Below, piece by piece: positions 30,431 to 31,193 of a stretch of 64,000 bases of DNA. The notes below the pieces were generated by a model. The model searched no databases, was not told the DNA's origin, and saw only the letters and a program-made list of their open reading frames with translations. The stretch lies in the sequence record OQ599310; one strand, written 5' to 3'. The position numbers and the translations under genes were made by a program. This stretch comes from Escherichia phage 55. Within the stretch, counting starts at the first letter, position 1; each line of letters opens with the position of its first letter.

Positions 30431-30645
30431 CTAAAGAACAGCATGAATACATTAAAGGGCTTATCTATGAATCTGAAATGGCGGCTATGATTTATGGGCG
30501 CCAGATTCAACGATTAGAATCTTTGCCTCCGACTAATGACCGATTGTTAGTTCAGTCTCGTGCTAATCTGAAAAATGAATATCAGAATAAGTGGGCAGTA
30601 GCGACTAAAGCTCTTCACGAGTATATTGAATCTTTAGTAAAATAG
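30421..30645 (+). CDS. hypothetical protein (74 aa), pseT.1-position
   Basis: ORF track; overlaps the o-spanin stop. Confidence 0.45.
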   Translation: MPMTKEQHEYIKGLIYESEMAAMIYGRQIQRLESLPPTNDRLLVQSRANLKNEYQNKWAVATKALHEYIESLVK

Positions 30646-30680
30646 TTTACAAACTCTCAGGAGCAGAGTATAATGCTCCT
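30645..30680 (+). promoter_or_regulatory. promoter cassette with palindrome (GTTTAC ... AGGAGC-agagTATAATgc-GCTCCT)
   Basis: GTTTAC 30645-30650; TATAAT 30669-30674 in the loop of inverted repeat 30659-30664/30675-30680; homologous to 1039-1074. Confidence 0.55.
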
Positions 30681-30702
30681 ATGGATAATTGAGGAAATCT
30701 AA

Positions 30703-31002
30703 ATGAAAACATTACTAGAGAATTACATCAAACGGTCTGATGAGTATATTGTTATCTGTCGTGGAATGTCACTTGGCAATTATGACAAAGATGCAGCAAA
30801 GGCACTAGATGAAGCAGGTAAAGCTCTTCGTAAAGCTGCTAAAGAAAAAGGGTTGGATTTGCAACAACTCAAAAGTCATATGATTAAATTTATTTCTTCA
30901 AACGTTAGAAGTACGTCAATTAATAAAAACGTTGCTGAAATTAATAAAGACCGGCGCGAGCATAACATTCGTATTCTTGAAATTTTCTTAGGAATAAAAT
31001 AA
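30703..31002 (+). CDS. hypothetical early protein (99 aa)
   Basis: ORF track; SD gaggaaatctaaATG. Confidence 0.45.
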   Translation: MKTLLENYIKRSDEYIVICRGMSLGNYDKDAAKALDEAGKALRKAAKEKGLDLQQLKSHMIKFISSNVRSTSINKNVAEINKDRREHNIRILEIFLGIK

Positions 31003-31193
31003 TGGACCAAGCCAAAATCGATAAGTTAATCCATACGCTTGTAGCAGATATCAATACCAGGGCTCTTCGTAAATCACAGAATGGTGAGTCTTGGACTATG
31101 CAAGATTGCAAGAAAGGTGCTGAACTAGGACGTGAAATTGCTAAAATTCTTGGTGGACAATTTGAATTTGCTGAAGAGGTAGTAAAACTGTGA
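31002..31193 (+). CDS. hypothetical protein (63 aa)
   Basis: ORF track; start overlaps upstream stop. Confidence 0.4.

Follow-up and report, generated by a model that had tools for sequence, protein, structure and literature searches.

The sequence analysed here, the window, is a 64,000-nt stretch of Escherichia phage 55 (OQ599310), and the coordinates given below are window positions unless another genome is named. Between pseT.1 and pseT, the window carries an early promoter combined with a hairpin, together termed the cassette, followed by two open reading frames (ORFs) of 99 and 63 aa, designated ORF99 and ORF63 (Table 1). The initial annotation had placed a palindromic promoter cassette and two ORFs of these lengths between the two genes, and all of them were found at the expected positions. 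The upstream gene pseT.1, the final gene of its transcription unit, ends with a TAG stop codon 1 nt ahead of the -35 box. ORF99 and ORF63 overlap by 1 nt (TAATG), and ORF63 and pseT overlap by 4 nt. The latter overlap had been read as ATGA; it is GTGA, since the start codon of pseT in the window is now GTG at the ORF63 junction, and translational coupling of ORF63 with pseT is still plausible from this arrangement. The PseT protein of the window shares 75.9% identity with T4 PseT.

Table 1. Features of the pseT.1-pseT region and of the second cassette copy in the window
Feature	Position	Strand	Evidence or remark
pseT.1 (74 aa)	30421-30645	+	phrog_2347, E 7.7e-38; 79.5% aa identity to T4 PseT.1; annotated pseT.1 in ATK47 and RB69
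Early promoter, TTTACA-17 bp-TATAAT	30646-30674	+	-35 box 30646-30651; -10 box 30669-30674; equals RB69 Pe:136687
Hairpin, 7-bp stem AGGAGCA/TGCTCCT, 8-nt loop GAGTATAA	30659-30680	+	Centroid fold; family covariation
Short leader, ATGGAT box and Shine-Dalgarno sequence GAGG	30681-30702	+	Sequence inspection; GAGG at 30691-30694, 8 nt before ATG
ORF99 (RB69ORF231c orthologue)	30703-31002	+	phrog_2364, E 3.1e-47
ORF63 (RB69ORF230c orthologue)	31002-31193	+	phrog_8683, E 3.2e-42
pseT, polynucleotide 5'-kinase/3'-phosphatase, GTG start	31190-32089	+	PF25109, E 2e-58; PF13671, E 1.4e-23; phrog_505, E 1.2e-124
Second cassette copy, TGTACA-17 bp-TATAAT, hairpin TGAGAGCA/TGCTCTCA at 1052-1075	1040-1080	+	Pattern search; upstream of ndd
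ndd	1113-1559		phrog_1102, E 1.8e-56

Over 1261 nt, the region shares 99% identity with genomes of Mosigvirus (ATK47, Mizar, p000v, Shf125875, and HX01), and 148 records span all of it at 95% identity or more. By sequence identity, the source of the window is assigned to Mosigvirus, the RB69-like T-even phages. The gene order is the same as in the ATK47 and RB69 annotations; the RB69 locus (NC_004928; PMC1524935) reads pseT.1 - Pe:136687 - RB69ORF231c - RB69ORF230c - pseT, with the promoter at the same site. Pe:136687 is an RB69 early promoter predicted by Nolan 2006 (PMC1524935, additional file 2) at 136637-136687 on the minus strand, and it corresponds to the cassette upstream of ORF99. ORF63 is 98% identical to the RB69 protein, and ORF99 is more than 90% identical among Mosigviruses. 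The loci differ in annotation: RB69ORF231c is annotated from an internal ATG (78 aa), whereas the conserved frame comprises 99 aa and starts 8 nt past the Shine-Dalgarno sequence. ORF99 was left unannotated in RefSeq ATK47. The promoter, ORF99, and ORF63 are thus already known, having all been annotated or published before with no function assigned; a literature search found no paper naming RB69ORF231c, RB69ORF230c, or pseT.1.

The locus is read here as an ordinary early region, with a probability of about 0.8. In this reading, a cassette of the promoter-early stem-loop (PeSL) class would serve as the promoter of ORF99, ORF63, and pseT, and the difference from T4 would result mainly from the loss of ORF99 in T4.

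The promoter-hairpin cassette and its family

The sigma-70-type promoter agrees with the consensus at 11 of 12 positions and was the top promoter-like site in the interval 28000-34000 in a promoter scan. A perfect 7-bp inverted repeat, AGGAGCA (30659-30665)/TGCTCCT (30674-30680), encloses a loop that takes in most of the -10 box, and the centroid fold gives a hairpin with -11.4 kcal/mol. The 30 nt upstream of the cassette are 73% A+T, compared to 62% for the whole window; this stretch is the coding 3' end of pseT.1. A near copy of the cassette ahead of ndd, reported in the initial annotation, was confirmed with 35 of 41 positions identical. The window contains exactly two matches (1042-1080 and 30648-30686) to the 39-nt pattern TACAAACTCT-N3-GAGCAGAGTATAATGCTC-N2-ATGGAT, of which five positions are free, compared to 0 expected from 100 shuffles. 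Several of the differences between the two copies fall in the stem arms and keep the pairing (AGGAGCA/TGCTCCT versus TGAGAGCA/TGCTCTCA). A downstream block, AATTGAGGAAAT, is common to both copies and is placed after an 18-nt insertion in the ndd copy.

PeSL cassettes of T4-like phages were defined by Arbiol 2010 (PMC2839356) and Comeau 2014 (PMC4122927) and are intergenic composites of a sigma-70-like early promoter and a stem-loop, with a Shine-Dalgarno sequence and a start codon at the 3' end. The promoter of the window fits the PST/T4 PeSL consensus TTTACW-N17-TAYWAT given in these papers. The perfect 7-bp stem, which covaries, places its 8-nt loop at the -10 box, as has been reported for RB49/phi1. 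The 3' end carries GAGG at 30691-30694 and the ATG at 30703, together with the block shared with the ndd copy. Like the described elements, the cassette is present in more than one copy (two in the window) and adjoins sites where related phages differ by inserted, deleted, or replaced small ORFs, its flanks differing among Mosigvirus, the Gaprivervirus VR25, and L034, an unclassified T4-like contig. On these sequence features, the cassette is assigned to the T-even PeSL family. It differs from the PeSLs of RB49, which have polyG/polyC stems, by its A/G-mixed arm AGGAGCA, and from the PST/T4 PeSLs of 2014, whose stem-loops were depicted directly ahead of the promoter. Terminator activity and mini-circles belong to the described PeSLs, whereas the T-even sub-family presented here is known from sequence. 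A single cassette flanks the ORFs of the window, and the two-PeSL scheme of excision and integration is not directly visible. Lambdoid morons are similar in being small accessory genes with their own promoter, placed between conserved genes. They usually bring a terminator of their own, often lie antisense to neighbouring genes, and have regulatory elements that are not thought to mediate mobility, whereas the ORFs of the window are co-oriented with the conserved downstream gene and translationally coupled to it.

The IMG/VR database was scanned with the pattern TACAAACTCT-N8-GAGTATAAT, leaving the arms free, and the matches were pooled with the loci already compared. The resulting family comprises 38 matches in 27 distinct contexts and precedes at least 10 different start regions, including ORF99, a 160-aa ORF, motB, ndd, and several more. 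Blastn revealed three to four cassette copies per Mosigvirus genome and one to two in Tequatroviruses. Across 15 distinct variants of the 8-bp stem, 98.3% of the cells were paired, and both-sided (compensatory) changes occurred in five of the eight pairs. Sliding the register by 1 to 3 nt reduced the pairing to 36-52%. None of 500 shuffles reached the observed value, although these shuffle statistics overstate independence, because the flanks (TACAAACTCT and GAGTATAAT) were kept constant in selecting the IMG/VR sample, some of whose genomes are related. The sense strand showed 14 G.U or U.G wobble cells versus one C.A cell. Because the complementary strand would have A.C mismatches in place of these wobbles, the asymmetry favours selection on a sense-strand RNA structure over a symmetric DNA cruciform or a protein-binding palindrome. 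The family includes a T4 cassette upstream of motB (about 7212-7174, minus strand, NC_000866), which has the same arrangement of TTTACAAACTCT, an 8-nt arm, GAGTATAA, and an 8-nt arm, is 86-88% identical over 43 nt, and carries the compensated stem GGGACCA/TGGTCCC. It differs in its downstream gene and in the spacer between the hairpin and the Shine-Dalgarno sequence; no promoter mapping was found in the MotB paper. With its covarying stem and sense-strand G.U pairs, this sub-family offers a testable case for a role of PeSLs at the RNA level.

The same sequences can be viewed as a DNA element, in which the palindrome would either be bound as an operator by a dimeric regulator or form a cruciform, exposing the -10 box, and would not act as an RNA hairpin. 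An inverted repeat centred on the -10 box would be an obvious site for a repressor or a melting aid, and the loop and the left flank TACAAACTCT, invariant in the family by construction of the search, are conserved in the blastn matches too. The stem arms, however, covary (GAGCA, GACCA, GGTCA, and GAGAG variants), as expected of a structure and not of a protein recognition site, and the strand asymmetry of the wobble cells disfavours a symmetric cruciform. An action at the DNA level is therefore considered unlikely.

An identity of the hairpin as a rho-independent terminator was rejected: the stem is followed by ATGGATAATTGAGG and no U-run, and the terminator scan returned no site at 30659-30690. 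Nothing in Rfam matched within 29500-32500 at E values up to 1.

If the cassette acts as a PeSL promoter, host RNA polymerase holoenzyme would begin transcription near 30681, directly past the hairpin on its 3' side, as soon as the cell is infected. The early mRNA would comprise ORF99, ORF63, pseT, and then the downstream cd.x genes, and the 1-nt and 4-nt start/stop overlaps would couple translation through to pseT. In this way, pseT would obtain its own early promoter, which T4 does not have at this position. Because the predicted start lies past the hairpin, the hairpin would be left out of the cassette's own transcript and would be found only in read-through RNA from rnlA-alc-pseT.3-pseT.2-pseT.1. 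There it most likely attenuates the read-through of the upstream unit or marks a processing or stabilising 3' end, a role proposed for PeSL stem-loops (Arbiol 2010, PMC2839356; Comeau 2014, PMC4122927).

Further early-type promoters with the -10 box in a hairpin loop were observed at 267-310, 779-820, and 21604-21650. Unrelated stems are used in the same architecture at 267 (TAGGACTA/TAGTCCTA) and at 21604 (GATAGGGCTA/TAGCCCTATC; fold z = -4.9), so that the genome employs the promoter-in-hairpin design generally and beyond the one cassette. In Enterobacter phage MY742, the cassette site (L041, 1975-2022) holds a GC-rich hairpin, GAGGGC-TTCG-GCCCTC, followed by the conserved CACGGAT box and by a Shine-Dalgarno sequence, and lacks both promoter boxes (-35 and -10); in its sequence, this element resembles the half PeSLs of Comeau 2014 (PMC4122927).

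Histories of ORF99 and ORF63

In T4, pseT.1 is followed directly by pseT, as stated in the initial annotation (NC_000866; pseT.1 end at 134908 and pseT start at 134907). To place this junction among the relatives, ORF99 was searched by tblastn and was found in 708 phage records, about 147 of them from Mosigvirus (at least 90% identity), 461 with 60-80% identity (Tequatrovirus), and 100 with less than 60%. In the sampled rows of the roughly 560 non-Mosigvirus records, the match abuts the polynucleotide kinase gene. These records represent at least four further genera and usually lack a cassette at this site. An ORF99 orthologue lies directly 5' of pseT in Tequatrovirus, Gaprivervirus, Tegunavirus, and L034; in Tequatrovirus, it has no cassette and overlaps pseT.1. 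Direct inspection of the adjacency gave pseT.1 - ORF99 homologue - pseT in T2; pseT.1 - ORF99 - pseT in RB6, all overlapping and with no promoter; cassette - 160-aa ORF - ORF99 - pseT in VR25 (Gaprivervirus); four other ORFs - ORF99 - pseT in phiR1-RT (Tegunavirus); and pseT.2 - 35-aa hydrophobic ORF - cassette - ORF99 - pseT in L034, a 170.5-kb IMG/VR contig. A 100-nt probe centred on the T4 junction, used with an E-value demanding a match across it, detected the T4-type junction in only 30 records: T4 and its laboratory derivatives, RB55, RB59, fPS-90, Manna, AV119/120, and a few others. With ORF99 positioned 5' of pseT in most relatives and the direct junction limited to these 30 records, T4 represents the derived state.

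The divergence of ORF99 points in the same direction. ORF99 of the window is 67.7% identical to that of RB6, where the flanking pseT.3, pseT.2, pseT.1, and pseT range from 48 to 78%, and 50.5% identical to that of phiR1-RT, where pseT.2 and pseT show 57-58%. Divergence within the range of, or in step with, that of the flanking genes supports vertical inheritance and fits a long-standing association of ORF99 with pseT that was passed on vertically across Tevenvirinae.

The sequence of the junction suggests how ORF99 was lost. In RB6, the heptamer ATGAAAA is present at the ORF99 start (…GAGAAAAATAAATGAAAACTCTG…) and again at the pseT start (…TTAAATGATGAAAAAGATT…), and recombination or slippage between these repeats is predicted to yield the junction GAGAAAAATAAATGAAAAAGATT. 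Phage Pu-Krd-SF4 (L045, 100-125) carries exactly the predicted product, GAGAAAAATAAATGAAAAAG, in which the TGA stop codon of pseT.1 overlaps the ATG of pseT. The T4 junction (L002, 4900-4925) has one extra A compared to Pu-Krd-SF4, giving TAA and then ATG. The pseT.1-pseT junction of the T4 clade is thus best read as a deletion of about 303 bp between two ATGAAAA repeats.

For ORF99, the gene gain proposed initially had the wrong polarity, as ORF99 adjoins pseT in other T-even lineages and would have been deleted by T4. Orthologues at the same position in T4 and in all relatives had been named as the finding that would speak against a gain; ORF99 occupies this position in most relatives and is missing from T4. 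Beyond annotation, the locus has little significance, but T4 is atypical here in missing a gene that lies next to pseT in most T-even phages, so that comparisons anchored on T4 mis-polarise gains and losses. ORF99 is also under-annotated, being absent from RefSeq ATK47 and truncated in RB69 and T2. The T2 homologue (L003, 2404-2721) is interrupted early by a frameshift or stop (ATGAAAACTCTGCTAATGCTATATTGA), and its annotation begins at an internal ATG (82 aa); ORF99 may be decaying in this phage.

The distribution of ORF63 is different, and the description of the two ORFs as one module was not sustained. ORF63 was found in 241 phage records in differing genomic contexts and is present in essentially all Mosigviruses (148 records, at least 95% identity). 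MY742 has a copy with 69-72% identity directly 5' of pseT, after a 160-aa ORF and with no ORF99. Jiaodavirus and related Klebsiella/Raoultella phages carry a copy with about 55% identity in the motA-asiA region, among arn-like genes, and Serratia jumbo phages (e.g., Moabite) also encode ORF63. The junctions of ORF63 in the window are start/stop overlaps with both neighbours, and no cassette or cassette remnant was found beside it on either side. Because ORF63 is distributed independently of ORF99 and has no cassette, the supposed two-gene module resolves into an old gene and a later, boundary-precise insertion. From these comparisons, ORF63 is classified as a small mobile gene in its own right, which entered the Mosigvirus lineage exactly at the boundary of ORF99 and pseT. 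In an 83-aa protein from a 56-kb metagenomic contig (P0036), approximately 57 N-terminal residues of ORF99 are naturally fused in frame to a C-terminal portion of ORF63, which implies that some Mosigvirus-like phage underwent a deletion spanning the boundary of the two ORFs.

The interval between pseT.2 and pseT is a compact example of gene-boundary shuffling. Upstream of the cassette, pseT.1 is found in Mosigvirus and a 35-aa hydrophobic ORF in L034 and VR25; downstream, ORF99 follows in the window and in L034, and the 160-aa ORF in VR25. The cassette coincides with gene-content breakpoints among Mosigvirus, L034, VR25, and MY742, which agrees with the proposal of PeSLs as recombination linkers. 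The hydrophobic ORF, of 32-35 aa (e.g., MIETCVCGWDAVRFGAAFFCFGIVFSMCMHGLFGK), stands right after pseT.2 in L034 (10273-10380), VR25 (L004, about 1350-1456), and MY742 (L041, 1877-1975). It replaces pseT.1, ends exactly at the -35 box of the cassette, and is annotated in MY742 and unannotated in VR25. Its product could be a small membrane peptide with a connection to the spanin genes.

In a rival history, an ancestral pseT.1-pseT junction of the T4 type would have received the cassette, ORF99, and ORF63 in this lineage as a single PeSL-borne module. The direct junction of T4, the known movement of PeSL-flanked ORFs (PMC2839356, PMC4122927), and the repetition of the cassette in the genome and its placement at breakpoints of variation would all suit such an event. 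The approximately 560 non-Mosigvirus records with ORF99 5' of pseT, including the cassette-free Tequatrovirus copies that overlap pseT.1, speak against it, as do the confinement of the direct junction to 30 records with a signature of repeat-mediated deletion, the independent distribution of ORF63, and the lack of a second cassette or remnant 3' of the ORFs. A joint gain is very unlikely overall and, for ORF99, largely refuted. What stands of the cassette-mediated gain first proposed is that T4 has neither the two ORFs nor the promoter at this position, that the slot is plastic, and that the cassette, a regulatory element of the mobile type, lies at breakpoints; it does not hold for ORF99, which T4 lost, or for ORF63, which has a separate origin.

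Besides the sampling of the cassette family, several points weigh against the reading as an ordinary PeSL-driven early region altered in T4. The hairpin of the window alone folds just marginally better than shuffled sequence (z = -1.4), and the support for it comes from the covariation in the family and not from this single-copy fold. With no U-run, it is not a canonical intrinsic terminator. The transcription start, the promoter activity, and the effect of the hairpin on read-through RNA are all deduced from the sequence. Deletion in T4, as opposed to insertions elsewhere, is a parsimony argument and not a dated phylogeny. Fold searches with ORF99 and ORF63 returned only generic helical-bundle matches.

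ORF99 and ORF63 proteins and further features of the region

ORF99 matches phrog_2364 over its full length (residues 1-99). Across five lineages with 50-67% identity, 27 columns are invariant, including the N-terminal MK.LLE.YI and the C-terminal LGIK. AlphaFold2 predicted four helices (pLDDT 78, pTM 0.65). An exhaustive hidden Markov model (HMM) search with the ORF99 alignment against 1.84 billion representatives retrieved only five proteins, all T-even-like, which indicates that the family is confined to T-even phages. ORF63 matches phrog_8683 over its full length (residues 1-63) and was modelled as a two-helix hairpin (pLDDT 81). Its core, DINT.AL.K.QNGE.WT..DCKKGA, is conserved, with 55-72% identity in Klebsiella, Enterobacter, and Serratia phages. 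The idea that ORF99 and/or ORF63 are not genes and that the interval is an untranslated pseT leader draws on the missing or internally started annotations in RefSeq ATK47 and RB69 and on the N-terminal frameshift of the T2 copy, and it is highly improbable given the separate PHROG families (E values of 1e-42 to 1e-47), the invariant residues and the conserved start and end of ORF99, the conservation of ORF63 in phages of three further host genera, and the Shine-Dalgarno sequences, overlap-coupled boundaries, and confident helical models of both ORFs.

For both ORFs, a word-indexed protein search found close relatives only, Pfam gave only sub-threshold matches (TnsD, E3_binding, and COMMD8), and profile searches against the PDB gave no significant match. 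A helix-turn-helix (HTH) identity, considered for ORF99, and a transposase identity were dropped, as no significant sequence or fold match was obtained. ORF99 and ORF63 are small, predicted helical proteins known only from phages. As a working guess, they may serve in host interaction or as accessory factors early in infection.

ORF99 may be functionally linked to PseT. It is conserved and coupled 5' of pseT in several T-even lineages while the gene content further upstream varies, and this raises the idea of a dedicated PseT partner that was overlooked because T4 deleted it. Such a partner might modulate RNA repair or counter defence of the anticodon-nuclease type. The idea is put forward as a speculation with a low chance of being correct.

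Two further observations concern the surroundings of pseT. Downstream of cd.3, the window contains a 330-aa ORF (33186-34178), for which ATK47 and MY742 give the annotation phospho-2-dehydro-3-deoxyheptonate aldolase (an AroG-like DAHP synthase). It resembles a metabolic gene of host origin, and no such gene is annotated in the T4 stretch examined. A further source of variation is seen in VR25, where a gene for a MobE-like homing endonuclease (L004, 3119-3844, minus strand), on the strand opposite to pseT, overlaps pseT at its 3' end.

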